The notes beneath the pieces are model-generated. The model did no database searches. It saw only the letters and a program-made list of their open reading frames with translations, and was not told where the DNA came from. The position numbers and the translations under genes were made by a program. Positions 1 to 16,097 of a stretch of DNA of 16,097 nucleotides are shown here, piece after piece; positions within the stretch are counted from its first letter, which is position 1; every line of letters starts with the position of its first letter. The stretch is taken from positions 1 through 16,097 of the forward strand of contig JARYMC010000023.1 of assembly GCA_029907305.1 (NCBI GenBank), given 5' to 3'. The DNA comes from Thermoplasmatota archaeon (GTDB lineage Archaea > Thermoplasmatota > E2 > DHVEG-1).

Positions 1-120
1 CCTCTGGCGGGTGCGCCTGCCCAGAAGTAAAAATGTTTGTTAGAAGAAAAATAGCGCGATTCATCCCCATGCTAAAGTCTGGGGATTTCTCGCTCACAAA
101 ATGTTAAAGAAAAGATTAAA

Positions 121-138
121 GAGAGGTATTTATTTACC
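121..138 (+). promoter_or_regulatory. Candidate archaeal promoter (BRE-like purine run + TATA-like box) for tRNA-Asp
   Basis: TATTTATTTA at 127-136 is preceded by AAAGAGAGG. The box centre lies about 26 nt upstream of the tRNA 5' end at 157, the usual TBP/TFB spacing. Motif found by eye only. Confidence 0.4.
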
Positions 139-156
139 ACTTAGAAAAAAGTAGCT

Positions 157-229
157 GCCCTGGTAGTGTAGTGGCCTATCATGCGAGCCTGTCGAGCTCG
201 CGACTCGGGTCCGAATCCCGACCGGGGCG
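157..229 (+). tRNA. tRNA-Asp (anticodon GUC), no encoded CCA
   Basis: Cloverleaf folded by hand. Acceptor GCCCTGG/CCGGGGC includes one G-U pair. Anticodon stem is CGAGC/GCTCG with loop CTGTCGA (anticodon GTC). T arm is TCGGG-TCCGAAT-CCCGA. Discriminator is G at 229. The D arm has the AGTGG motif. Confidence 0.93.
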
Positions 230-307
230 TATATCCTTCATATTGTTAGTAAGAAAAGTATAAGTCTTTTTATTTGTTATACTTACTAATGTCTAAGTGG
301 TGAGAGT

Positions 308-2137
308 ATGAAAAGAATTATAACTGGAATAATTGTTTTAACTCTGTTTATTAGTGTTTTTAACTTTTTTTTATCTGAGAATATTTGCATCGCTGGAAAA
401 ACCATATATGTTGATAAAAACGGAGGGGGCAATTATACCACAATTCAGGAGGCGATAGACGCGGCTGACCCTGGTGATAAGATATTTGTTTACAGCGGAA
501 CCTACAATGAACATCTCAAAATCACAAAAAACATAGAACTCGTTGGAGAAAGCAAAGTTTCTGTTATCATAGATGGTAGCGGTGGGGCAAACGAACATGT
601 AGTGTATGCATATGGATCTGATGGAAATGAAATTGAATTTAGGATTTCTGGTTTTACGATAAAAAATGCTCATGGAACCGGATTTGATTGTTTAGCTTTA
701 TCATATGTTAACACTGGTGAAATAAATGATAATAAAATAATGAATAGTGCAAAAAGCGATGGTGTTCAGCTTGACCACTGCAGCGGTGTTACAATAAGTG
801 GAAATACTATAAGCGGTAATACTCAGGGTAGCGGCATAAACCTAGTTGTTTCAACAAACAATGTTATTTCCAATAATCAAATTCAGAATAACCAGATAGG
901 AATCAATCTATATCAATCCCAAAATAATATGATATATAACAACAAATTAAACGGGAATACCCAAAGAGGGATCTCCATCTCTCAATCATCAAATAATGTT
1001 TTTTACAAAAATGATTTCTCGAATAACGGACAAAATGCTTACGATCCTGGTACAAACAACAGCTGGAATTATAATAAGTGGGGTAACTACTGGGATGATT
1101 ACACAGGTAAAGATGACAATGGTGATGGCATCGGTGACACACCATATAATATATCTGGTGGTAGCAATAAAGATATGTGTCCTCTCGGGTATTTTGTTGG
1201 TGAAAATCAAAAACCGGTTGCTTTTATTGATTCTATCAGCCCCACCCCAGCAACAGAGGGACAAACAGTTTCTTTTAATGGGCATGGAACAGATAGTGAT
1301 GGTACAATCATAGAATTTGAGTGGACATCGAGTATAGATGGGCAGATAAGCAATTTGGAAGATTTCACGTATTCAGGTTTATCTGTTGGTACACATACAA
1401 TTAGTTTTCGTGTTAAGGACAACAACGGTGAATGGTCAACACCTGTAACAAAAACACTCACAGTAAATGCTGCCAGCCAGCAAAACCATAAACCAACTGC
1501 TATAATCGTAGCAGTAAAACCAAGTAGTGCAAACTATGGGACAACTATAACGTTTTCAGGTAGAGGAACAGATATAGATGATGATGAAATTATAGAGTAT
1601 AGTTGGAGTTCCAATATAGATGGTTTTTTGAGCGAACAAGCAATATTTACCAAATCTGATCTATCACCTGGAGACCACATAATATCATTTAAAGTAAAAG
1701 ACTCAAAAGGGGCATGGTCTGATGTGGTTACAACAGGTCTCACAATAAAACAGATATCACACCAAAATAACCCACCTATAGCAGATGCCGGTGGACCTTA
1801 TTCAGGGGTTGTGAATGTTTCTTTGTCTTTTAATGGATCAAATAGTCACGACCCTGATGATGGGGATAATATAGTATCCTATTTATGGGATTTCGGTGAT
1901 TACACAAATAGTACAACAGTAAACCCAACTCACGTTTACTCCCGAGCGGGAAACTACACTGTAACCCTAACTGTGACTGATAGCCATGGAAGTAAAAATA
2001 CGAGCTCAACTTATGCAAGCATTACACAATCAAACAACCAGAATAAAGACAACGCCGGTAAGACACCGGGTTTTGAATTTTTATTTATAGTTATAGCTAT
2101 AGGTTTTATTTTATTGTGGAAAAAAACTTTTGGGTAA
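308..2137 (+). CDS. Secreted right-handed beta-helix (NosD/PbH1-type) surface protein with three PKD/Ig-like domains and a PGF-CTERM anchor signal
   Basis: 609-aa ORF with GGTGA Shine-Dalgarno at 298-302 and N-terminal signal peptide MKRIITGIIVLTLFISVFNFF. Typical beta-helix start IYVDKNGGGNYTTIQEAIDAADPGDKIFVYSGTY, then repeated SGNTI/SNNQI/NNKL turns and GNYWDDYTGKDDNGDGIGDTPY. Three PKD-like domains follow; the third has WDFGD. C-terminus is GKTPGFEFLFIVIAIGFILLWKK. Confidence 0.93.
   Translation: MKRIITGIIVLTLFISVFNFFLSENICIAGKTIYVDKNGGGNYTTIQEAIDAADPGDKIFVYSGTYNEHLKITKNIELVGESKVSVIIDGSGGANEHVVYAYGSDGNEIEFRISGFTIKNAHGTGFDCLALSYVNTGEINDNKIMNSAKSDGVQLDHCSGVTISGNTISGNTQGSGINLVVSTNNVISNNQIQNNQIGINLYQSQNNMIYNNKLNGNTQRGISISQSSNNVFYKNDFSNNGQNAYDPGTNNSWNYNKWGNYWDDYTGKDDNGDGIGDTPYNISGGSNKDMCPLGYFVGENQKPVAFIDSISPTPATEGQTVSFNGHGTDSDGTIIEFEWTSSIDGQISNLEDFTYSGLSVGTHTISFRVKDNNGEWSTPVTKTLTVNAASQQNHKPTAIIVAVKPSSANYGTTITFSGRGTDIDDDEIIEYSWSSNIDGFLSEQAIFTKSDLSPGDHIISFKVKDSKGAWSDVVTTGLTIKQISHQNNPPIADAGGPYSGVVNVSLSFNGSNSHDPDDGDNIVSYLWDFGDYTNSTTVNPTHVYSRAGNYTVTLTVTDSHGSKNTSSTYASITQSNNQNKDNAGKTPGFEFLFIVIAIGFILLWKKTFG
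1211..2026 (+). repeat. Three tandem PKD/Ig-like domain repeats (protein level, about 85 aa each)
   Basis: Units at aa 302-387, 395-481 and 489-573 share the pattern xVxFxGxGxDxDGxIxxYxWxSxxDGxL...GxHxIxxxVxDxxGxWS. The third is a canonical PKD domain (SYLWDFGD...HVYSRAGNYTVTLTVTD). The DNA copies are diverged. Confidence 0.8.
2063..2134 (+). other. PGF-CTERM archaeosortase-A-type sorting signal (C-terminal 24 aa)
   Basis: A Pro-Gly-Phe motif (TPGFEF) is followed by a hydrophobic helix (LFIVIAIGFILLW) and a basic tail (KK), preceded by a polar N/Q/S-rich linker. This is the PGF-CTERM tripartite layout. Confidence 0.8.
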
Positions 2138-2191
2138 ATATACCAAAAAAAGAAAAAATAGGTTGGTAGAGATGTTTTGTTTCACCGAGTT

Positions 2192-2200
2192 AAAAAAAAA
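2192..2200 (-). terminator. Oligo-T (T9) archaeal terminator directly after the S8 peptidase stop codon
   Basis: The plus strand is A9 at 2192-2200, so the minus strand reads TGA-TTTTTTTTT. Archaeal RNAP terminates at oligo-T tracts. The convergent plus-strand gene has GTTTTGTTT at 2174-2183. Confidence 0.45.
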
Positions 2201-4354
2201 TCATCTGTAGAGTTTGATATTGCGTTCAAGTAGTGAAAACAAATGCCATAGGACTGGGAAACGCTGGAGGATTTTGTTTAATATCGGATGCATAAATGTT
2301 CTAGGTGTTGTTAACTCCACTGGTATATCTACATAGTCACTTGGGTTTTCTGTGTTAACGATTTTTACTACACCTGAGAATATTTTCTCTGATAGTGTAG
2401 GTGCAACAACTGTTACATGGACATCAACTAACGACCCTGGTTTAAGACCTGTGCCGCTTGATGGGCTAAAACTCCATGTTCCCCACTCTGGCCACCCAGC
2501 TATCTTCCAGCTTAGCTTGTTTTGACCATATGGATCTGGATTACCGATGTTTTCAACATAAATGTCTGATGTCACTGTTGACCCTGGTGATATCCCCCTC
2601 CAGGTAAGGTCACCATATGCGTTAAGATTTGGTTGTGAGGGCTCATAATCATCTGATATTTTAAACCAGACTTTGGCATCGTTTTCATCTGTAGTAGTGC
2701 TACCATCGTCTTCACCGTTGGTGGTAAGATACCCACCTTCCTGCCTAACTGTATCACCAGTGAGTTTGTTAGTCGCAATGTTATAAGTCCCCTGGTATAT
2801 AGCTCCTCTAACATCATCTATTGAGTTGTCTACTCCACCACCAGGGTATGCGCTCACATCAGCTAAATCATCAGCTCCACCCTCTATTATACCATCGTGT
2901 TCCATGAGCTTGATTTTTATCTGAACCTCAAGGTTTTTTGCATCAAAAACATAGTCTTTATCTGGCGTCCATGTGTCTTCGTTGTTCCAGTCGAAAATCC
3001 ACCAACCAGGTAGTATCTCCACATCTTGACCATTATATTCAAAGATAGCATTATCGTCAACGCTAACCCGATAGTACCACTCTGCCTGTCCACCAGTAAC
3101 CCAGTCGATTGGATCTATTTTCTCCACCTTATATATCTTTACTGTTACCTTTGACCAGTTACTAGGTCCTCCTCCGCCACCAAGTGAGGCATCAACAAGA
3201 CCATAACCAAAGTATTGATCCCAACCTGTTTGACCTAGATCCTCGGCTGTGTCCCTAAGTTTTTGTCTAATCCAAACATTGTTCTGAGATGGATACAATG
3301 ACTTAGCAAGCGCAGCAACACCAGCTACATGAGGACACGCCATAGAGGTACCAGTGAAGAACTTATACTCGTTACCAGGTATCGATGATACAACACGGTA
3401 ACCTGGTGCCATAAGCTCCAAGTCTTCACCATAGTTACTAAAACTACATCTATTATCACTTGTATCAATAGCACCAACAGCTATAACAGTAGGATAAGCA
3501 GCAGGGTAACTAACATGGGATTGACCATCGTTACCCGCAGCAGCAACCACTACAACACCCTTCGTGTTATATGCATAATCACAGGCATCCTGGATAACAG
3601 AAGACGGGCTGTTACTACCAAGACTCATACTGATAATATCAGCACCGTTGTCAGCAGCATGTGTTATACCACTAGCCACATTAGATGAACTACCTGAGCC
3701 ACCTGCACTGAGAACCTTCTCAGCCATAACCTTAACCTGGGCTACACCAGCGATACCCTTGTTGTTGTTCATAACCGCAGCAGCTATACCAGCACAATGC
3801 GTCCCATGGTCATTATCATCCATCGGATCATTATCGTTGTTAACCCAGTCGTAACCCCCAGAAACATAGTTACCAGAGATATCCTCATGATTATAATCGA
3901 TACCGGTGTCCACAATAGCTATTTTTACATTGCTGCTACCAGTCCCAGCATCCCATGCTTTTTCACAATGAATCCTCTTAGGACCCCACTGCTGACCCCA
4001 AAGAGGATCATTAGGTGTGAGAAAAGCATGAACTAGATAATTAAGCTCAGCGTATTTAACATAAGGAGAACCAATAACACTATTGATGAATGATTGTTCC
4101 TCCCCTTCGTTAACACTGATTACAGCAGCGTTTAAAACAACAATTTTCTGTTTGATGTTATGCCCATTAAAACTGTTGATGTACTCAACATTTATTGGCT
4201 CTAAACCATCTAGTTGTTTGTGGAAACCTACAACAACCTCACCAGGCACATAATCAACTGTAGCATTGTTGTCCCCATTTTGTGTAGCAACAGCCCCAAA
4301 ACCACTAGCAACCATCAACAAAATGATGGTTGATACCACAATTTTCTCTCTCAT
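2201..4354 (-). CDS. Secreted subtilisin-like serine peptidase (family S8) with I9-type propeptide and a 283-aa C-terminal module plus tail
   Basis: Catalytic triad motifs are IAIVDTGID (Asp codon 3908-3910), DHGTHCAG (His 3806-3808) and GTSMACPHVAG (Ser 3344-3346). An I9-like propeptide (YVPGEVVVGF...YVKYAELNYLVHA) and signal peptide MREKIVVSTIILLMVASGFGAVA are present. The ORF track starts at 4372, but ATG 4352-4354 has GGAGGT (4364-4369) 9 nt upstream, so I call the start at 4354. Confidence 0.93.
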   Translation of the reverse strand: MREKIVVSTIILLMVASGFGAVATQNGDNNATVDYVPGEVVVGFHKQLDGLEPINVEYINSFNGHNIKQKIVVLNAAVISVNEGEEQSFINSVIGSPYVKYAELNYLVHAFLTPNDPLWGQQWGPKRIHCEKAWDAGTGSSNVKIAIVDTGIDYNHEDISGNYVSGGYDWVNNDNDPMDDNDHGTHCAGIAAAVMNNNKGIAGVAQVKVMAEKVLSAGGSGSSSNVASGITHAADNGADIISMSLGSNSPSSVIQDACDYAYNTKGVVVVAAAGNDGQSHVSYPAAYPTVIAVGAIDTSDNRCSFSNYGEDLELMAPGYRVVSSIPGNEYKFFTGTSMACPHVAGVAALAKSLYPSQNNVWIRQKLRDTAEDLGQTGWDQYFGYGLVDASLGGGGGPSNWSKVTVKIYKVEKIDPIDWVTGGQAEWYYRVSVDDNAIFEYNGQDVEILPGWWIFDWNNEDTWTPDKDYVFDAKNLEVQIKIKLMEHDGIIEGGADDLADVSAYPGGGVDNSIDDVRGAIYQGTYNIATNKLTGDTVRQEGGYLTTNGEDDGSTTTDENDAKVWFKISDDYEPSQPNLNAYGDLTWRGISPGSTVTSDIYVENIGNPDPYGQNKLSWKIAGWPEWGTWSFSPSSGTGLKPGSLVDVHVTVVAPTLSEKIFSGVVKIVNTENPSDYVDIPVELTTPRTFMHPILNKILQRFPVLWHLFSLLERNIKLYR

Positions 4355-4385
4355 TTTTTTTAGACCTCCCATTTTTTCAAATTAC

Positions 4386-6203
4386 TCATAATTTAATTAC
4401 CTCTTTATTTAATATCCTGCTGGTATCAAAAAATAAACTAGAGAAAAGAAACCGTGAAACCTGTGGTCTCTGTAAATAATTGACAAAAAACATTTGATTT
4501 GATATATCCCGCGGTACAGTTATTGACACAGTGATATCCTGGTTCCCCCCATTTGAAGTAAGTTTAAGAACCCCACTGTAATCATCTTGTTGCATATCAC
4601 CAGTGTTTACTGTAACCACAACTTCTTTCTTCTGACCAGCAGATAATGAGCCTGACGACGGGTTTACTGCATCAACCCAGGAAGGCTTGGTTATACTCCA
4701 ATCAAGTTTTCTATTTGGGTTAAATGGATCGGGTTCTGCTGTGTTTTCGATGATTAACGTTGCTGTTACAGTCTCTCCTTGCCCAACTGAACCGAAACTA
4801 ATCGAAGTCGGATAAACTTTTAATTTTGGCTTATAATCATCATTATTATAGGTGTCTGTGATTTTAAACAGAATTTTTGCATCATTTTGATCACCTGATT
4901 CACCATCTAGTTCCCCTGTGATAACATAGTAACCACTCTCTGTTGTGAAATCATCTCCGCTAAGAGTATCAGTCTCTAGGTTATATGCCCCATGATAAAC
5001 TGCCCCTCGTCTTTCTCCGTTTAACCATTCATCAAACAAGAAATTATCAGCTCCACCACCTGGATGACTACTGATATCAGCTAGGTCATCGAGGAATAAA
5101 TCGTCCTCCATCAACTTAATTTGAATGTCAACAACTGGGTCGATGACTTTAACGACGTAATTTTTATTTGGAGTCCAAGTAACTTGGTTTTCTGGACCGA
5201 TTTCAGTTGTAACAAAAGCTACATCTTTTGAAAACATTCTGATTGTATAATACCAGTCTGGGTCATCACCTGGCCATCCCTCTATGGAATCTTGTTCAAT
5301 AACTTGGTATATGTTTACTGTCACTGTTATATCACTGCTAACACCGCCACCAATGATCGTAACCTCACTATTAGGATCTCCATCATACATCTGTGGGTGC
5401 TGAGAGGACATATAATTTGTGGTTTTTGGTTGCGCGTAATTAAATGTTTCCTCAGCGGTAATAACACCATCGTTGTTGCCCTGTTGGTCAGCATTCCCCC
5501 GGAAACCTTCTATAACAAAGTAGCTGAAGACACCACTTTTTAGTTCATCGGTTTCATATGAATATTCATTCGCTGCACAAGCCATCAGAATAACACGGTT
5601 TTCATTCCCAGCACCTAAAGTCTGTAAAAAGTTGGTGATAAAATCATCTGCGTTGAAATTAAAACCTGGTGGACCCATACCACCACTGTAACAGGTGTCT
5701 AGTATAACTACGACCCTGCCGTTGAAATTGTTTAGTATACCATTAAGCTCGGTATCATACATGTATGAGTCGTAGCAGCAGATTGCTTCACCATTACCAT
5801 CTTTTGTTCCGTGGCCGCTAAAGAAAAACAGTGATACGCTACTTGAAGTTGTTTGTCCTGCTATTTCATTTAATTTATTTGTTATAGCACCTTCTGTGCC
5901 TTGGCTGTCAATAAAAATAGTTATGTCGTTTTCATTCCACCCATTTTGTTTAAGAACTTCTCTCATCCCACGGGCATCGTCATCAGTGTATTGTAGATCT
6001 GGCCCACCTGGCCCAGCAGGGGGGTAATCAGCTACTCCAACAACTAGTGCTTTTCTTCCTCCAGCTAGAGATTCTACATTTAAAATATTATCACTGTTTT
6101 TATTCACAACATGTTGTGTGCTAACTTGACCAGCTGCCCCAAAACTTCCTAAAACCATTAGGATAACGATGGTTAAAGACAATATTTCCCCATTCATCTC
6201 CAT
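4386..6203 (-). CDS. Secreted clan-CD cysteine peptidase, caspase-like (C14 orthocaspase/metacaspase-type) with a 274-aa C-terminal module plus tail
   Basis: KALVVGVADY..., FFFSGHGT (His codon 5811-5813) and VVVILDTCYSGG (Cys 5691-5693) form the His/Cys dyad in caspase-fold order. GVFSYFVIEGFRGNAD..NDGVITAEE is typical of prokaryotic C14 proteins. Signal peptide is present. The track start at 6209 is a GTG. ATG 6201-6203 has GGAG 5 nt upstream, so the start is 6203 or 6209. The gap to the S8 gene is only 13-31 nt, so the two are probably co-transcribed. Confidence 0.88.
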   Translation of the reverse strand: MEMNGEILSLTIVILMVLGSFGAAGQVSTQHVVNKNSDNILNVESLAGGRKALVVGVADYPPAGPGGPDLQYTDDDARGMREVLKQNGWNENDITIFIDSQGTEGAITNKLNEIAGQTTSSSVSLFFFSGHGTKDGNGEAICCYDSYMYDTELNGILNNFNGRVVVILDTCYSGGMGPPGFNFNADDFITNFLQTLGAGNENRVILMACAANEYSYETDELKSGVFSYFVIEGFRGNADQQGNNDGVITAEETFNYAQPKTTNYMSSQHPQMYDGDPNSEVTIIGGGVSSDITVTVNIYQVIEQDSIEGWPGDDPDWYYTIRMFSKDVAFVTTEIGPENQVTWTPNKNYVVKVIDPVVDIQIKLMEDDLFLDDLADISSHPGGGADNFLFDEWLNGERRGAVYHGAYNLETDTLSGDDFTTESGYYVITGELDGESGDQNDAKILFKITDTYNNDDYKPKLKVYPTSISFGSVGQGETVTATLIIENTAEPDPFNPNRKLDWSITKPSWVDAVNPSSGSLSAGQKKEVVVTVNTGDMQQDDYSGVLKLTSNGGNQDITVSITVPRDISNQMFFVNYLQRPQVSRFLFSSLFFDTSRILNKEVIKL

Positions 6204-6250
6204 AGACACTCCACTCGCTTTAAATAACAGCCGATATATATATGAAATTG

Positions 6251-6266
6251 TATATAAATAATTTTT
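6251..6266 (-). promoter_or_regulatory. Candidate promoter (TTTATATA TATA box + A-rich BRE) for the C14-S8 gene pair
   Basis: The minus strand reads AAAAATTA-TTTATATA (TATA at 6251-6258), matching the archaeal TTTAWATA consensus. The predicted TSS near 6225 leaves a short leader containing the GGAG SD. Confidence 0.4.
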
Positions 6267-6269
6267 GTT

Positions 6270-6282
6270 AAAAACAAAAAAA
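6270..6282 (-). terminator. Oligo-T tracts (T7, G, T5) just after the C25 peptidase stop
   Basis: The minus strand reads TAA-A-TTTTTTT-G-TTTTT immediately downstream of the stop at 6284-6286. Confidence 0.45.
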
Positions 6283-6283
6283 T

Positions 6284-7699
6284 TTAATTAGTGCATCCAC
6301 CGATTTTAAGACTGGGATCACCAAGAAGAGTCCACTGCTGAACAGTTTTACAGTCACTGCGGTCATTATGCACATCAAATTCATTGATATAGTCTCTTAT
6401 AACCTGGGTGTGCAACTCACCAAGAATATCTACGCCATTGACTGAATACTCATAAAATAACTTGGGTTCTATCCAACCAGCAAGACCATTCAAAGTATAG
6501 TTACCAAAATAACAAAAACCTAACCCGGTGTTACCTATAGCTGCTATAGCACCACCGTTACGACAACTAACCAGTCGCCAACCAAGACACTCAGGTATCC
6601 ATTCAAACTTCCAAAAAGAACCAGACTCGTCCTCAGAGGATTTAAAATAAGATAAACCCTCTTTACTAAAATCCCTCAATATGTTAAAAGGGCTGGTATC
6701 GAACATATTATTGTGGCAACCACCAATTATAAAAATTGGTAGTTTCTCACCGTTTCTAATACTACGAACCTGAAAAGTAAAAAGTAAATCCATCCATATA
6801 GTATCATTATCAACAGGATGGGTAGACCAAACCAACGGGGTTCCATGACCTGAGATATGAACAAAACCAGCACCTTTCCTAATCGCTGTGACTAGATCAC
6901 GGCTTTTTTTTAAACTCCCATCAGAAACCCATAGGCGAGTAATATTAAAATTGATAGCCCTCATATAACTAGATGAGAGATCAGTGATAGCCTCACCCTC
7001 ATAAACACCATCCTGATCAAGGGGAACAGTATCACCACCAGCGATTATCATATTTTTAAACCAGCTCCCACTGGAAGCCCTGGTCTCATAGTTGATTATT
7101 TTCTTAACAACGGTTCTAACCTCAAACAGGTTTCTACAGGCAAGACGCCCAACACATACATCAGGATAAAGATCGAGGACGTCTTTCACCGATGAGTCCC
7201 AGTTCCACTCAGCAAAAACATTGTTACCATTAGAGTCCCAGTCATCAAAAACCAGTTTACCATCCCCATCCATCTTGTAGATATCAGCGTAGTAAAGATC
7301 ACTTATGTATCTTATATCCCAATCCTGACGATCATCTAAATTAGAATATCTCACTGGTACATACCAGCTTTGCCTACCGGTTTTCATACCACCAACAAGA
7401 AGAACATATTTTATACCCCATGTTTCCAAAGCATCTTTTATGAAGTATTTTATCTGCTCAGGTTTATCCCTACCAACATAACCTCTATAGATTTCGTCTG
7501 TTGTTTTTAAAATGGTTTTGACACCAACATTGTTTTTATGTTTAACAAGAGGAGAAAGCAGTTTTGAAAACTCTTTTGGCGCTATGATAACAAGATCATA
7601 TGAATCAGATGATTTCGAAGATTGTTTAACCGCATTAGTATTTATATTAGAAAGCATCAAAAGGATTAAAACTAATGATATTAGTACTAGGTATCTCAT
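6284..7699 (-). CDS. Secreted clan-CD cysteine peptidase, gingipain-like (family C25)
   Basis: C25-type N-terminal region is YDLVIIAPKEFSKLLSPLVKHKNNVGVKT...GRDKPEQIKYFIKDA...YVLLVGG, followed by VCVGRLACRN...IINYE. His motif is FVHISGHGTP (His codon 6845-6847) and Cys motif is IFIIGGCHNNMF (Cys 6716-6718). It ends LLGDPSLKI. Signal peptide is MRYLVLISLVLILLMLS. GGGAGGT lies at 7713-7719. Confidence 0.88.
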   Translation of the reverse strand: MRYLVLISLVLILLMLSNINTNAVKQSSKSSDSYDLVIIAPKEFSKLLSPLVKHKNNVGVKTILKTTDEIYRGYVGRDKPEQIKYFIKDALETWGIKYVLLVGGMKTGRQSWYVPVRYSNLDDRQDWDIRYISDLYYADIYKMDGDGKLVFDDWDSNGNNVFAEWNWDSSVKDVLDLYPDVCVGRLACRNLFEVRTVVKKIINYETRASSGSWFKNMIIAGGDTVPLDQDGVYEGEAITDLSSSYMRAINFNITRLWVSDGSLKKSRDLVTAIRKGAGFVHISGHGTPLVWSTHPVDNDTIWMDLLFTFQVRSIRNGEKLPIFIIGGCHNNMFDTSPFNILRDFSKEGLSYFKSSEDESGSFWKFEWIPECLGWRLVSCRNGGAIAAIGNTGLGFCYFGNYTLNGLAGWIEPKLFYEYSVNGVDILGELHTQVIRDYINEFDVHNDRSDCKTVQQWTLLGDPSLKIGGCTN

Positions 7700-7754
7700 A
7701 AACTAGTTTTTTACCTCCCTGAGATTAAAAGATGTTTTATAATAAAAACTGTGT

Positions 7755-7764
7755 TATTTAAATA
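7755..7764 (-). promoter_or_regulatory. Candidate TATA box for the C25 peptidase gene
   Basis: The minus strand reads TATTTAAATA. The predicted TSS near 7734 gives a leader of about 35 nt that includes the SD at 7713-7719. Confidence 0.35.
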
Positions 7765-7811
7765 TTCGCATGTATCTATAACCATGTTGTTTGTCTGATA
7801 AAATCTAGATT

Positions 7812-7833
7812 AAAAAAATGGGATAAAAAGAAA
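7812..7833 (-). terminator. Oligo-T tracts downstream of the 941-aa gene
   Basis: The minus strand reads TTTCTTTTTATCCCATTTTTTT, starting about 20 nt after the stop at 7853-7855. Confidence 0.4.
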
Positions 7834-7852
7834 TAGATTTTATTAAAAGGGA

Positions 7853-10678
7853 TTAATTGTTCATGGTGTTTTGATTACCAGCTATCTTTATTGTTACTGA
7901 TGTACCCTGCATCTGTAAGTTGTTGTTAACCTGGTTAACTGATATGGTTTGTACATAATTTACAATAATGTTTCTTGGGAAATACACATAGATGTTTGCT
8001 TCGTATTCATGGCCAGCGTAATCATGCGCAACAGCAATTATATGTCTCCATTGACTCTTCTCAAATGAACGATCACACCACCATTTATAGTTATTAGAAC
8101 CAGGTGGATCCGGGTTGTATACTCTAACCGGGCTCTCATAAGGTGGGCCAACATCAAATTCCACATAAGCAACTCCTGAGCCAACATCTGTTGCTGTTGC
8201 TTGTACCCAAAATCCTCCCTGTCCAGGTACATTTGCTCGATCTGGTGGATCCCAAATTTCACAGTACGGTGGGGCTTTATCGAGCTTTATGTGCTGTGGT
8301 CCCTGAGGTGGCTCAACGTTTCCTGCTTTGTCAACAGACCAATAGTAAACATCCCATTCTCCATACATAGTGTTTGGGTCACCTGTTGCATCTAAAGGTA
8401 TTTTTATGCCGTTGTCTTTGTTATATTCTTGAACTACTCCATCATCTATCCTGAAATACGTGTGATTAACACCTGAGCCATGCTGACCATCTGTTGCACT
8501 AAGCTCTATCTTTACATTTCCAATATACCAACCATTTAAACCCAATGGTCCTTCTATTTTACTTATCACTGTTTCAGGTGGATCTTCATCTAAACCAACA
8601 TAAACAACCTTCCATGAATCAAGCGTTGGCGTATAAGACGGGTTTGTACGAGTGAAATAAGCCTGTAAACGAATACCAGGATGCAAAACTGGGTCAATAC
8701 CTGATAGATCCTCGCCGTCACCAGCGTTAGAAATCAAAACTGTTACTCCATTGCTATCAAGTATGTTAAAAACTATACTACCAGCGTATTGTACACCAAA
8801 TTCATACCATGCAAGTAGATTCTCAGGGCTTATCACCTTAGAAGTAACCTGAGCTGTTAAAATCAGCTGTTTCTCAGTACCAATAGAGTATGTTACTTCT
8901 GATCCAGAGGGAATATTTAAATGCCAAATATTACCATAAACAGAGGGTAGAATTTGGTTAACAATCCTCTCGTCCTCCCATGTAACAAAAATCTTTCCTT
9001 CACCAACAGCCATATTCGCCCAGTCAGCATCAGCAGAGTTACTTGCAGAAAGCTGAACATCACCAGACACAACCTGACCATTAGAGAGAACAAGTTTACC
9101 AAAAATATCACCATTATTGTCAAATGAGACAAAAAATGATGATGACAAATAATTAACAATGTCAGTTCTCACAAAATTACCAGCTTTAATAATAAAATTA
9201 TTTACAATTGTGTTCCCAGAATAATCCAGTATCCTACCCCATACGTTACCCCACCAGTCGCCATCACTTATATCACCATCATTCCAAGTAACCAGGTAAC
9301 ATTGTGCTTCTGCAGAAAATTCCACACATGGGAAATTATAATCAGTATCAGAACTTCCAGTAGCAATAGTAATTGTACTACCAACTGGGTTTAAATTTTT
9401 ATCAAAAAGACCAGCTTTAATGCTAAAAGGTCCATTATCAGCTGTCAATCCTTCCTCCCATACAATCATGTATTGCTCATGTACAGGATCAAAAGCAACC
9501 CATGGTTCACACTGAGAATTTGCAGCAGTACAAATAGTTTTCTCAGAACCAACAGGATTACCACTGGTATCATAGAGTCTACCATAAATATTGTAATTAT
9601 TCATACCATTACGAGCATCCTCCCAAACAACACAAAAACGATTATTAACAGAATCAAACTCAACATTAGGGTCAGCCTGACAATTACTAGCAGTACAAAT
9701 ATCAATCACAGGACCAAGACCACCACTAGTTGTAACAGTCCTACCCTTAATATCCATATAAGTAGGATCAACAGGATGAGAAACACCATAATGCTCCCAA
9801 GCAACAAAAAACTTACCACCACCAAAATCAATAGACGGGTTCTCATTTCTAAATTGCAGAGGATAAGGTAAACCATCTGAAAATACTTCAAATTCAGATA
9901 CAACAACATTACCGCTACTATCAAACATAGTGCCCCTGATCTCTTGTCGAATAGGAACTACGGTTCCTTCTTCCCAAGCAACAAAAAACCTGCTGCTACC
10001 AAAAGCAACATCCGGATCCCAAGCACCCTCGACATTTAGTTTATTTGTTATCTTATAATCATCCCCCCACCTGTATTCCCAGGAAAAAACATTATCAAAA
10101 TTGCTTTCACTTGTAGCACTGGGGTTACCATAAAACAGGTACATATTACTAGTTCCAGTTTGTAAATAAGGTATTTCAACCCAAACAACAGCCTTGGTTG
10201 AATCATATGTTTCTATCCAGTAATCAAGCCAACTTGATGGTAAACTTTCATGTTTAAAACGAAGATCATCATAATCAGGCTGCATATCAGAATCATAACT
10301 AACATTAATTTTAACAACACAGTTGGTTATTGGACTCCCTGCGTTGTTTGTTATCTGAATTGGTTTCATCCTAGTCCAAGACGGATCAGTCCAGATAGGG
10401 TAAGTGTTTTTCATTTTAACATAACCATTTTCAATAACATAATTATCTGTTGCTCCAGCCCCAGGAGGATTTGGATCGATTTTTGAGGAATCATTAAAAA
10501 AATCTTTCCAATAGGAAACTCCTCTCCCATCTTTGTCTAATAACTCTATTGTTTTATTTTGGAACAAATTTTTTATGTCCTTTATTGGTTTATGATCAAA
10601 AGCCTGCGCTGCTGAAGAAGCAAGTAAAATAATAAATAATGCTACAGCAGCTATTTTCAAAACATTGTTTTTTTCCAT
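7853..10678 (-). CDS. Large secreted protein: DUF2341 (concanavalin-like) domain + seven-fold 'VAWED' repeat region (beta-propeller-like) + beta-sandwich + two Ig-like domains
   Basis: 941-aa ORF with signal peptide MEKNNVLKIAAVALFIILLASSAAQA and GGGGGT SD 5 nt upstream. DUF2341-like block is YDDLRFKHE..LDYWIETYDSTKAVVWVEIPYLQTGTSNMYLFYGNPSA (aa 104-198). Seven repeats span aa 218-587. The C-terminal Ig-like units contain GWYIGNVKIELSATDGQHGSGVNHTYFRIDDG and WVQATATDVGSGVAYVEFDVG. Confidence 0.9.
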   Translation of the reverse strand: MEKNNVLKIAAVALFIILLASSAAQAFDHKPIKDIKNLFQNKTIELLDKDGRGVSYWKDFFNDSSKIDPNPPGAGATDNYVIENGYVKMKNTYPIWTDPSWTRMKPIQITNNAGSPITNCVVKINVSYDSDMQPDYDDLRFKHESLPSSWLDYWIETYDSTKAVVWVEIPYLQTGTSNMYLFYGNPSATSESNFDNVFSWEYRWGDDYKITNKLNVEGAWDPDVAFGSSRFFVAWEEGTVVPIRQEIRGTMFDSSGNVVVSEFEVFSDGLPYPLQFRNENPSIDFGGGKFFVAWEHYGVSHPVDPTYMDIKGRTVTTSGGLGPVIDICTASNCQADPNVEFDSVNNRFCVVWEDARNGMNNYNIYGRLYDTSGNPVGSEKTICTAANSQCEPWVAFDPVHEQYMIVWEEGLTADNGPFSIKAGLFDKNLNPVGSTITIATGSSDTDYNFPCVEFSAEAQCYLVTWNDGDISDGDWWGNVWGRILDYSGNTIVNNFIIKAGNFVRTDIVNYLSSSFFVSFDNNGDIFGKLVLSNGQVVSGDVQLSASNSADADWANMAVGEGKIFVTWEDERIVNQILPSVYGNIWHLNIPSGSEVTYSIGTEKQLILTAQVTSKVISPENLLAWYEFGVQYAGSIVFNILDSNGVTVLISNAGDGEDLSGIDPVLHPGIRLQAYFTRTNPSYTPTLDSWKVVYVGLDEDPPETVISKIEGPLGLNGWYIGNVKIELSATDGQHGSGVNHTYFRIDDGVVQEYNKDNGIKIPLDATGDPNTMYGEWDVYYWSVDKAGNVEPPQGPQHIKLDKAPPYCEIWDPPDRANVPGQGGFWVQATATDVGSGVAYVEFDVGPPYESPVRVYNPDPPGSNNYKWWCDRSFEKSQWRHIIAVAHDYAGHEYEANIYVYFPRNIIVNYVQTISVNQVNNNLQMQGTSVTIKIAGNQNTMNN
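8918..10027 (-). repeat. Seven tandem repeats of about 50-60 aa (protein level) with core P-x-V-x-F-(x)n-F-x-V-x-W-E-[DE]-...-I-x-G-x-x-x-D-x-x-G-N
   Basis: Successive cores are DVAFGSSRFFVAWEEG, SIDFGGGKFFVAWEHY, NVEFDSVNNRFCVVWEDA, WVAFDPVHEQYMIVWEEG, CVEFSAEAQCYLVTWNDG, DIVNYLSSSFFVSFDNNG and NMAVGEGKIFVTWEDE. Each is followed by a [IV]xG..xDxSGN strand. Seven units suggest a 7-bladed propeller, which is inference. Confidence 0.7.
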
Positions 10679-10969: not shown

Positions 10970-11563
10970 TCACCCATTGGTTAACATCATACTCATAGAC
11001 TGTTGCATCAAAATCTGTTCCTCAACTGACAAAGTATCCATGTATTGTTGTAATAACAACTGCTCATCAGCTGCCAAGGTAAGCATATACTCGTTCATAG
11101 ACTCACTGCTACCACCACCACCGCCTTTGCGAATCATAGTAATATCCTGATTATGTTTAACTGGCTGCGACGAAGTCAATCTCACAAATCTAAATCCAGG
11201 CAGATATTCATCAGGTTTACGAGCTATCACCAAGAAAAGCCCTATTGGAACATCAGTAAAAAAGTAATAACCATTTGCATTAGTTTTATCCGCTTTCTGG
11301 AAAGCAAAAGTTATCCCACCAATAATCTTTCCACCAATTAAAGTAACACTAGCACCTTCAACTGTTACAGCCCCGGTACCATTAAGTGGAAGACCATAAA
11401 CAGTACCATCAATAGAGATAGTACTAAGAGAAACCATAATCTTTTTTATAGCAGTTTGTTGCAAAGATGTTTTTGGTTGAACAACTAAAGCCATTAAACC
11501 AGGGCTAGCTAAGATTATACAAACTAAAACCAAGATAAATGTTGATACCGCTCTTTTTTTCAT
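10970..11563 (-). CDS. Small secreted protein with a carboxypeptidase-regulatory-like (CarboxypepD_reg) beta-sandwich and a Gln/Met-rich repeat tail
   Basis: Signal peptide is MKKRAVSTFILVLVCIILASPGLMA. IDGTVYG...VTVEGASVTL...KTNANGYYFFTDVPIGLFLVIARKPDEYLP fits the CarboxypepD_reg pattern. The track start at 11581 is a GTG lying inside the SD. ATG 11561-11563 has GGAGGTGA (11569-11576) 5 nt upstream, so I call the start at 11563. Confidence 0.8.
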   Translation of the reverse strand: MKKRAVSTFILVLVCIILASPGLMALVVQPKTSLQQTAIKKIMVSLSTISIDGTVYGLPLNGTGAVTVEGASVTLIGGKIIGGITFAFQKADKTNANGYYFFTDVPIGLFLVIARKPDEYLPGFRFVRLTSSQPVKHNQDITMIRKGGGGGSSESMNEYMLTLAADEQLLLQQYMDTLSVEEQILMQQSMSMMLTNG

Positions 11564-11708
11564 CTTCTTCACCTCCCCCACCTGTCCATAATAAAATTTT
11601 TTTGTTGCTACCGGCGGACGTAAACAACCTTTTTTTGTTATATCACCTCTTCCTCCTTAAACTTTATAAGTTTTTTTAGGAGTTTATAGTATAATATAGA
11701 ACACCTTC

Positions 11709-11716: not shown

Positions 11717-12044
11717 TTTTTTAGACCAATTATCCTATAACAGCCTATTTTTTACAGATAGAATCATCTCTTCAATGTAATTCATGATACAACTTACATT
11801 CAAAAAGAAAAAAATTTGAAGGATTTTAACAGCAAATATCCAAGCGATCTATCAATAACACAGACATAATAAAAAATTTCTCGCTTGAAATTATTCATTA
11901 CAAAAGAAAAACGAAAGGCTCATGTCCCTAAATCATCGGACAAAACGACTCACATAAGTCATCTTTCTACTTGAATCATGATCTGAGGAATCCTTCATGC
12001 TGTTTATATCTGTTAGTCAGATAATTCGTAGGGAAGAGAAAAAC

Positions 12045-12052
12045 AAAAAAAA
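12045..12052 (-). terminator. Oligo-T (T8) terminator of the rRNA operon
   Basis: The minus strand reads ...CACCTTACAATTCACAAA-TTTTTTTT-GTTTT, about 10 nt after the 3' strand of the 5S terminal helix. Confidence 0.5.
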
Positions 12053-12066
12053 TTTGTGAATTGTAA

Positions 12067-12300
12067 GGTGGCTTGACAGCGTACCAGGAGCCCCTAACTT
12101 TCAAGCAGTGGAGCTTACCTCATAAGACTCCCGAAGGAATCAAACAAGGCTCTCCACCTAGGCTAAGGGTTCCAGCCCCTTGCGGGGTAATCTTCCCATG
12201 GGCTCGCGCACCATAGTACCGAAGATTACGCAGGTGAGCTTAACTGCCGGGTTCTGGATGAGACCGGGTGTTTCCCCACCGCTTTGACCGTCAAACCACC
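12067..12300 (-). rRNA. rrf: 5S rRNA, apparently expanded (about 234 nt) by an internal insertion of about 105 nt
   Basis: The minus strand contains the 5S core GCGGUGGGGAAACACCCGGUCUCAUCCAGAACCCGGCAGUUAAGCUCACCUGCGUAAUCUUCGGUACUAUGGUGCGCGAGCCCAUGGGAAGAUUAC (about 12187-12283). The helix I 5' strand GGUGGUUUGACGG (12288-12300) finds its complement only at 12067-12079 (CUGUCAAGCCACC), not directly after helix V. End points are approximate; pairing extends to 12063/12305. Confidence 0.8.
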
Positions 12301-12334
12301 ATTACCCTAGAGTTTATGTGAAAAATTTTTTTTG

Positions 12335-12345: not shown

Positions 12346-15288
<2,943 letters not shown>

Positions 15289-15299: not shown

Positions 15300-15445
15300 T
15301 GCAATCCATTGCACATTTTGCAATGGGACAATCATCGACTGAAATATATTTGCGAAGATACCAGTCTATGTCCTTACCATCTTATTCTCTGCAGAATAAG
15401 ATGGCGTTCTTTATATGAGCTAGTTATTTGAATGGAAAATCGCGA

Positions 15446-15517
15446 TGGACCGGATGGGATTTGAACCCATGGCCTCCTGCTTGCAAAGCAGGCGATCTTC
15501 CGCTGATCTACCGGCCC
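15446..15517 (-). tRNA. tRNA-Ala (anticodon UGC) in the 16S-23S spacer
   Basis: The reverse complement is GGGCCGGTAGATCAGCGGAAGATCGCCTGCTTTGCAAGCAGGAGGCCATGGGTTCAAATCCCATCCGGTCCA. The acceptor has the G3:U70 alanine identity pair. The anticodon loop is TTTGCAA and the T loop is TTCAAAT. Length is 72 nt with no encoded CCA. Confidence 0.95.
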
Positions 15518-15629
15518 AACCCTTTAACAAATAATTTTGTGTCAGTGGGTGAGCCAGTAGCGGTTAATATATTTTTTGTCGACGTATGTTTTTAGTGTTT
15601 TTGAACTACCCAACCATTTTTTTTATCGT

Positions 15630-16097
<468 letters not shown>

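Follow-up and report, generated by a model that had tools for sequence, protein, structure and literature searches.

The 5S ribosomal RNA (rRNA) of Halococcus morrhuae reportedly has 231 nucleotides (nt) and carries a 108-nt insertion, as described by Luehrsen et al. in 1981. An insertion of this kind is present in the 5S rRNA gene of an uncultured archaeon of the Thermoplasmatota, and that gene is the subject of this analysis. It lies at about 12063-12305 on the minus strand of contig JARYMC010000023.1 (assembly GCA_029907305.1), of which the 16,097-nt stretch analyzed here is called the window. The locus is probably a functional 5S gene that belongs to a new lineage of non-halophiles and retains a Halococcus-type expansion segment of 106 nt.

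The 108-nt Halococcus insert follows the nucleotide equivalent to H. marismortui C108 and precedes the one equivalent to G109 (site 104.1/105), five nt before helix I (Tirumalai et al. 2020, PMC7530397; Stepanov and Fox 2021, PMC7812874). It has the shape of an asymmetric V, made of a short hairpin and a long unbranched arm, and it is kept in the mature 5S rRNA, where cryo-electron microscopy detects flexible density at a four-way junction (PMC7530397, PMC7812874). The insertion site allows unhindered outward expansion in archaeal 5S rRNA (Stepanov and Fox, PMC7812874). Expanded archaeal 5S genes appear in the literature searched here only for Halococcus, Halalkalicoccus, Halomarina, and Halodesulfurarchaeum; standard annotation cuts off all of them inside the insert, and the authors pointed out that poorly annotated genomes elsewhere might conceal more (PMC7812874). 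The Thermoplasmata join the carriers of this known kind of feature as a new group that is far more numerous and belongs to a different phylum and habitat.

Other additions to stable RNAs resemble the module less closely. Bacterial 5S expansion segments occur in Thermoanaerobacterium and relatives, Halanaerobiales, Lachnospiraceae, Peptococcaceae, and Pseudoalteromonas (PMC7812874). They too are large, internally paired, clade-restricted modules on an intact core, but they occupy the helix III bulge, loop C, helix IV, and other sites, range from 13 to 109 nt, have other structures and no sequence relation to the present module, and often stand alongside normal 5S genes or pseudogenes. Archaeal introns of rRNA and tRNA genes that carry the bulge-helix-bulge (BHB) motif are likewise additional RNA within a stable RNA gene, whereas the Thermoplasmata insert has no conserved BHB at its borders and is conserved in sequence and length like a functional RNA part. 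The large-subunit expansion segments of eukaryotes and Asgard archaea are helical outgrowths into solvent that leave the common core undisturbed; they belong to 23S/28S rRNA, are variable in both length and sequence, and frequently contain repeats (PMC7594248). In contrast, the Thermoplasmata segment is part of 5S rRNA and allows little variation in length or loop sequence.

Results

The 5S core is closed by a distant helix I strand

Rfam model RF00001 matched 12177-12295 with 75.7 bits (E = 8e-15; gathering score 38). The alignment stops at 12177, where helix I is closed poorly, with 6 of 9 pairs, by borrowing CCCGCAAGG from the first hairpin of the insert. Helix I closes the three-way junction only through the distal strand at 12067-12079, which forms 13 of 13 pairs and is homologous to the helix I strand GCUGUCAGCC of unexpanded Thermoplasmata 5S genes. 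The minimum-free-energy fold of 12058-12310 (-114.6 kcal/mol, z = -5.9, none of 200 shuffles equally stable) pairs 12063-12080 with 12288-12305. Helix I is long, with 14 base pairs (bp) followed, in 79 of 91 homologous sequences, by 3-4 more past a small bulge, compared with 2.6 ± 0.16 for shuffled flanks. The gene length is about 234-243 nt, set by the endpoint chosen for the extended helix I. The original prediction, made from the DNA letters alone, had proposed an intact 5S core with helix I closing only across a large insert. RF00001, the fold, and covariation over more than 90 homologues all bear this out, and every helix and coordinate that it listed matches the sequence. The elements of the gene, all on the minus strand, are as follows.

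12063-12305 (approximate), minus: expanded 5S rRNA gene, the final gene of a 16S-tRNAAla-23S-5S operon (RF00001, minimum-free-energy fold, homologues)
12300-12288, minus: helix I, 5' strand GGUGGUUUGACGG, pairing with 12079-12067
12187-12287, minus: canonical 5S core with loop A, helices II and III, loop C, and helices IV and V with loop E (Rfam alignment; helices II, III, and IV covary)
12081-12186, minus: inserted module (expansion segment) of 106 nt (comparison with unexpanded relatives)
12187-12176, minus: short arm, hairpin CCCC-GCAA-GGGG, with a conserved stem and a variable loop
12086-12175, minus: long arm, consisting of base, middle, and distal helices
12162-12175 with 12084-12098, minus: base helix of the long arm, including CCCUUAGC/GUUAGGGG (12169-12162 with 12098-12091)
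12099-12107 and 12159-12161, minus: conserved asymmetric internal loop, 3' side UGCUUGAAA and 5' side CUA, respectively
12152-12158 with 12107-12113, minus: middle helix, GUGGAG/CUCCAC (12157-12152 with 12113-12108)
12150-12146 with 12121-12117, minus: distal helix, GCCUU/GAGGU
12140-12127, minus: long-arm cap AUUCC-UUCG-GGAGU with a cUUCGg tetraloop; C-G closing pair and UUCG in 90 of 91 sequences
12081-12085, minus: GGUAC directly after the module, pairing with GUAAU at 12225-12229
12079-12067, minus: helix I, 3' strand CUGUCAAGCCACC, the perfect 13-bp complement of GGUGGUUUGACGG, about 106 nt beyond the normal 5S position

Rfam, searched with the insert region at a permissive threshold, returned just 5S rRNA and chance matches (E > 3), and the module is therefore not a described family. 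A scan for tRNA and transfer-messenger RNA found none in or beside the 5S gene. The insert is bordered by a TAC direct repeat (12187-12189 and 12081-12083). Because the repeat flanks the module (GAAGAU-UAC...GG-UAC-GCUGUC), the insert borders are ambiguous. The repeat could be a remnant of the insertion event or a conformational switch.

Expanded 5S genes are widespread in uncultured Thermoplasmata

Homologues were collected by two scans. In the genome scan, each prokaryotic species was represented by a single genome and the search pattern came from loop C, with no reference to the insert; at least 120 stretches matched. The metagenome scan was run with a pattern drawn from the insert's 3' half and yielded at least 120 contigs; the carrier counts from both are lower bounds. 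A whole 5S gene with the insert, 78-90% identical, is present in 15 of the 120 genome-scan matches listed. All 15 are metagenome-assembled genomes (MAGs) labelled Thermoplasmata, Thermoplasmatales, Thermoplasmatota, or Euryarchaeota, none is assigned to Halobacteriales, and two are complete chromosomes (CP070724 and CP070798). In the other Thermoplasmata among the genome-scan matches listed, helix I closes after about 123 nt. Genomes and metagenomes together gave at least 108 contigs of uncultured Thermoplasmata with a full-length expanded 5S gene, 97 of the sequences being distinct, and the insert is thus conserved in relatives and is not an artefact. Several metagenome carriers are sediment-derived, as judged by contig names (SMTZ, WSSed, SL_8KL_010_SED).

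Merging at ≥98.5% identity left an alignment of 91 sequences that are 58-94% identical to the window. The last 1200 nt of the 23S rRNA, compared for the 57 loci with 23S upstream, are 82.5-95.2% identical to the window, and the feature therefore spans a deep clade. A divergent subgroup (L068, L126, L214, L044) has a short hairpin of the form GGUCC...GGACC, a distal arm shortened to give an insert of 95-100 nt, and a helix I of another sequence, CAACAUGACGG / CUGUCAGUUG. These divergent forms indicate a long co-evolution of the module with its hosts. Two loci (L021, L091) for which a helix search had suggested insertions of about 50 nt proved on inspection to have normal 5S genes.

Two further loci have irregular genes. 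The 5S gene of L047 (JAGGSL010000010.1, about 90-200, minus strand) has a core and 23S that resemble those of an expanded subclade (L138/L144/L162); past helix V neither the insert nor a 3' strand for helix I is present, and either gene decay or a chimeric assembly may be the cause. The expanded 5S of L132 (5003-5238; PDVH01000364.1) is missing 18 nt spanning loop D, the helix IV 3' strand, and the GAA of loop E, and may be a pseudogene or an assembly error.

The module covaries and is under purifying selection

The RNAalifold consensus of the homologues closes helix I across the insert. The structure derived from the window was scored on the 91 homologues, and 91.4% of 8065 sequence-by-pair cells are standard pairs. 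Controls in which the partner was slid by 1-3 columns gave 34-48% for this structure and 32-48% over both of the helix V drawings described below. Compensatory changes on both sides occur in 51 of 89 pairs (50-51 over both drawings), and none of 500 shuffles attained any of the observed covariation measures. Helix I (columns 9-22/241-254) is 86.9% paired over its whole length, with compensatory changes in 9 of 18 pairs. The short hairpin (columns 124-126/136-138) is 100% paired, and all three of its pairs show compensatory changes. The long-arm helices are 84-99% paired (24 of 34 pairs compensatory), and the stem of the cap covaries as well. The insert helices and the distal helix I strand thus covary in the 91 sequences. 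Stepanov and Fox (2021) define an expansion segment as an insertion of at least 13 nt in the conserved core, extensively paired within itself and leaving the core fold intact; this module has 106 nt, and its helices are 79-100% paired. It folds as an independent unit of two arms.

The GNRA hairpin of the original prediction is there as a covarying stem, but its loop is not conserved and reads UUAA, CUGA, GCAA, UUU, and others among the homologues. Because this loop varies, a fixed tetraloop-receptor contact is unlikely. The nucleotides of the asymmetric loop are unpaired and nearly invariant, although this stretch is partly fixed by the metagenome search pattern. Comparison by eye of the asymmetric loop with the consensuses of the kink-turn, the loop E/sarcin-ricin motif, and the 11-nt tetraloop receptor gave no fit.

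Insert length is 100-110 nt in the 91 homologues, with a mode of 108 and 106 in the window. In 14 sequences found independently of the insert, the major-allele frequency is 0.91 for the core, 0.79 for the insert, and 0.56-0.58 for the flanks. Core conservation is on par with that of ordinary 5S genes. Within the insert, conservation is higher at unpaired than at paired positions (0.87 versus 0.81), although the metagenome search pattern inflates part of this figure; the difference points to specific contacts. These results establish that the insert is under purifying selection.

An insert-only covariance model built from the family (R1) scored 104.7 bits at the insert and had no other match in the window. 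With default filters it had no match elsewhere in 685 kb of unrelated loci. It matched each of 100 family loci exactly once and never outside the 5S gene in about 1.3 Mb overall. The insert is therefore not a repeated or mobile element.

The insert most likely interrupts the 3' strand of helix V

Two drawings of helix V are nearly equal on the 91-sequence alignment. The uninterrupted drawing (91.4% paired) has a 9-bp helix V that uses the pre-insert AUUAC and is followed by the insert. In the split drawing (91.8% paired) the outer helix V pairs are supplied by the post-insert GGUAC, and the canonical loop E register is retained. The TAC repeat permits these two outer pairings, which are mutually exclusive. 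The inner pair 87-119 of split helix V is formed in 90 of 91 sequences with seven double changes, and columns 80-84/236-240 are paired in 91, 86, 89, 25, and 90 of the 91 sequences.

Four observations place the insert in the helix V 3' strand. The outer pair 82-238 of the split form covaries (AU 84, GC 4, UA 1). In the divergent locus L044 the split form alone is possible, with a perfect GUUCC/GGAAC and a pre-insert strand that is unable to pair. In unexpanded relatives helix V ends with GGUUC, GGAUC, or GGAAC right before GCUGUC, which matches the post-insert GGUAC. The fourth is the loop E register. The sequence evidence thus makes it most likely that the insert interrupts the helix V 3' strand five nt before helix I, and GGUAC at 12081-12085 is probably the original 3' strand of outer helix V. 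The helix I sequence of the window recurs unchanged (GUGGCUUGACGG / CGCUGUCAAGCCAC) in a relative that has no insert (L051), and this fixes the boundary between core and insert. The predicted size of about 105 nt was essentially right, with 106 nt found; the predicted location strictly between helices V and I was not, the site being most likely within helix V.

Comparison with the Halococcus insert

One haloarchaeal sequence was compared, taken from the plasmid-borne rRNA operons of Halococcus dombrowskii. The expanded 5S is at 131236-131470 of NZ_CP095007.1 (L242), and the copy on NZ_CP095009.1 is identical. Both records are classed as plasmids; the PLSDB gene table omits RNA genes and lists no feature at the expanded 5S. 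A second plasmid search found no more haloarchaeal expanded 5S genes. The H. dombrowskii gene reads ...GGGAAAACUG | CCUCGCAAGAGGGGCCAAGUGUGAGCCCAGGAGCGC...GCGCUCCGUUACAACGGCUCAUAACUAGU | GGUUCGCCGCC.

The precedent named in the original prediction proved apt, as site, size, and layout recur in the H. dombrowskii 5S. Its module is likewise inserted in the 3' strand of helix V, five nt before helix I, leaving GGUWC between. Its length of 108 nt equals the modal length of the Thermoplasmata inserts. A short hairpin again precedes a long unbranched arm with internal loops in an asymmetric V. The insert opens with CCUC-GCAA-GAGG, as do those of many family members (L104, L239), and the 13-nt start CCUCGCAAGAGGG is identical in many Thermoplasmata members. 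The Halococcus arm has an 8-10-bp base helix, a 2/8-nt asymmetric loop, a 6-bp helix, a further loop, and a distal hairpin; the window has the same order with a 3/8-nt loop and a 7-bp middle helix. The asymmetric loop CCA / CGUUACAA of Halococcus corresponds to CUA / UGCUUGAAA in the window, and the loop nucleotides are partly common, with C-C/U-A-GG on one side and G-Y-U-U/A-N-A-A on the other. Standard annotation truncates the gene inside the insert in both cases.

The differences are also clear. The host of the window is an uncultured, non-halophilic sediment member of the Thermoplasmata and not of the Halobacteriales, the 5S core of the family differs from the haloarchaeal core, and the Thermoplasmata sequence is richer in A+U. 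The distal half of the long arm shows no sequence relation to that of Halococcus and is capped in the Thermoplasmata by an invariant cUUCGg, and the TAC repeat of their main clade allows the alternative, uninterrupted helix V. Retention in the mature RNA is demonstrated for Halococcus, whereas the Thermoplasmata module is known from genes alone.

Profile searches were run in both directions. The family model aligned with the Halococcus insert end to end, with the exact insert boundaries, at 10.3 bits (E = 0.081 in 1.8 kb and 0.012 in the insert region; E-values of both models are rough); run with default filters on 685 kb, it gave no match. A reciprocal model (R2), for which the Halococcus insert was the sole source, had family inserts with exact boundaries as its top three matches in 80 kb (14.4, 12.8, and 11.7 bits), and its E-values on the family were 0.19-1. 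In an alignment test that used sequence only, z was 2.3, and 9 of 300 shuffles did equally well.

A retained expansion segment could also have arisen independently of Halococcus, the shared site and V shape reflecting one of the few sterically free places on the molecule. This is the strongest competing explanation, and it is plausible while falling short of an even chance. The profile scores of 10.3 bits forward and 9.6-14.4 bits in reverse are low and lack significance when the search space is large. In their distal halves the long arms fail to align, the two hosts come from different phyla and very different habitats, and the site is described as the freely exposed one in archaeal 5S rRNA (Stepanov and Fox, PMC7812874). 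Against independence, the insertion points are identical to within one nucleotide, and the modal length, the hairpin-before-arm order, the 13-nt start in many members, and the series of an 8-bp helix, a loop of 2-3 versus 8 nt, and a 6-7-bp helix with shared loop nucleotides all recur. The targeted E-values of about 0.01 and the sequence-only test point the same way. A common origin of the Thermoplasmata and Halococcus modules is therefore favoured by the identical site, size, and arm order and the matching proximal architecture; we consider it somewhat the better supposition and not proven. The module was undescribed in this kind of organism, as the original prediction supposed, but its suggestion of an independent case is made doubtful by the agreement in site, size, layout, and part of the sequence.

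Excision of the insert is disfavoured

The original prediction also raised the alternative that the insert is an excised intervening sequence. It would be transcribed and then cut out, leaving a 5S of normal size after religation or a 5S in two parts joined by pairing in helices I and V. A processing substrate, too, would be expected to have a conserved and self-contained fold at a constant site, and the TAC repeat at the borders would permit seamless removal. Absent RNA data, excision is possible for any expanded 5S gene other than those of Halococcus and Thermoanaerobacterium (Stepanov and Fox, PMC7812874). The insert borders in the window and the 91 sequences were searched for a BHB, defined as two 3-nt bulges with a 4-bp helix between them at the exon-intron borders, and none was found that brackets the window insert or is conserved in the family. 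Of the candidates that span the borders, even the best are confined to at most 27 of the 91 sequences and clash with the covarying helices, and the frequent candidates pair the core with the insert. A positive control on the 23S processing stem and flanks gave weak candidates only; because this control was not clean and relaxed motifs could escape, the test has limited power. Removal also fails to account for the strong conservation of unpaired insert nucleotides and for distal loops and a tetraloop cap that are constrained beyond the needs of a cleavage substrate, and in Halococcus the corresponding insert stays in the mature 5S and has been seen on the ribosome (PMC7530397). Excision is disfavoured on these grounds and is improbable.

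A 5S pseudogene or an assembly artefact, suggested by the Rfam alignment that ends within the insert with a poor helix I and by the damaged appearance of L132 (18-nt deletion) and L047 (3' part missing), is refuted by the recurrence of the architecture in at least 108 contigs that were assembled independently and come from many samples, by compensatory changes in every helix, by the normal operon position behind 23S, and by a core conserved as in ordinary 5S genes.

Genomic context

The minus strand of the window contains an archaeal 16S-tRNAAla-23S-5S operon, identified by Rfam and tRNA scans. The 5S gene has the operon-end position typical of 5S, and 23S lies just upstream in 57 of the 108 expanded loci too. 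The spacer between 23S and the extended 5S helix is 48 nt. The other operon features are as follows.

15630-16097, minus: 16S rRNA, 3' part (Rfam)
15444-15518, minus: tRNA-Ala (tRNA scan and Rfam)
12354-15280, minus: 23S rRNA, complete and archaeal (RF02540, 2779 bits), directly upstream of 5S
12039-12052, minus: oligo-T tract, T8 G T5, read from the sequence, 11 nt past the extended helix I

Archaeal transcription terminates at oligo-T, and the tract at 12039-12052 is likely the operon terminator. A 203-residue open reading frame at 10970-11581 (minus strand), between the peptidase cluster and the rRNA operon, has no Pfam match. A tRNA-Asp (GTC) gene is at 156-230 (plus strand), at the far end of the window and on the strand opposite to the rRNA operon. 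The run of genes at 308-10678 encodes secreted-type proteins.

308-2137, plus: NosD/beta-helix/PKD protein
2201-4372, minus: S8 subtilase
4386-6209, minus: C14 caspase-family peptidase
6284-7699, minus: C25 gingipain-family peptidase, identical to a protein of MAG GCA_050410955.1
7853-10678, minus: DUF2341 protein of 941 residues

This run of secreted-type proteins and peptidases is consistent with a protein-degrading sediment archaeon. Together with the sediment origin of the samples, the neighbouring gingipain-like, caspase-like, and subtilase genes suggest a member of Marine Benthic Group D/Thermoprofundales.

Discussion

The operon is transcribed in the order 16S-tRNAAla-23S-5S, and the 5S core folds normally. 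The extra RNA departs from the helix V 3' strand a few nt ahead of the three-way junction and folds on its own into the short hairpin and the long unbranched arm with its cUUCGg cap. On the return of the chain, GGUAC completes helix V and CUGUCAAGCCACC closes helix I. In the mature 5S rRNA the module would project from the solvent side of the central protuberance, like the Halococcus insert, and its invariant unpaired nucleotides would act as a specific contact or docking surface. Retention and solvent projection are suggested by the Halococcus data, the free outward site, the absence of a conserved BHB at the borders, and the constraint on the distal loops. A protein or RNA partner would most likely be contacted through the invariant asymmetric loop and the more distal A/AAR loop.

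Several points weigh against this interpretation. Retention in the mature 5S is something that we infer by analogy. The conservation figures from the metagenome set are inflated over the stretch that served as the search pattern, and the single-copy result was counted per locus. The main clade also permits an uninterrupted helix V through the pre-insert AUUAC, which leaves the site ambiguous there. The similarity to Halococcus is statistically weak (about 10-14 bits against one Halococcus sequence), and the Halococcus model run on the whole window ranked the insert third, with 9.6 bits and a rough E-value of 0.78.

A bolder scenario, doubtful as a whole and offered tentatively, would have a single ancient 108-nt module shared by Halobacteria and a deep sediment clade of Thermoplasmata, either inherited or moved with the 5S gene. 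It would have been kept for a job unrelated to salt, the loop and the capped arm serving to bring a dedicated partner, either a protein or an assembly factor, to the central protuberance. The TAC repeat of the main clade would switch helix V between registers and so couple docking to the incorporation of 5S.

Since 1981 the Halococcus 5S insertion has been viewed as a curiosity, with halophily and local horizontal transfer as the frame of discussion, and the most thorough survey, of 2021, recorded it in four haloarchaeal genera only. A module of the same site, size, and layout is carried by at least 91 distinct 5S sequences (98.5% cut-off) from non-hypersaline sediment archaea of another phylum. 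The feature is thus widespread and either old or transferable, and its role is not tied to salt. The truncation of such 5S genes by standard annotation matters for rRNA databases and for quality checks of MAGs. The large alignment exposes the conserved loops as the likely functional parts and makes the question of what the module is for a testable one.

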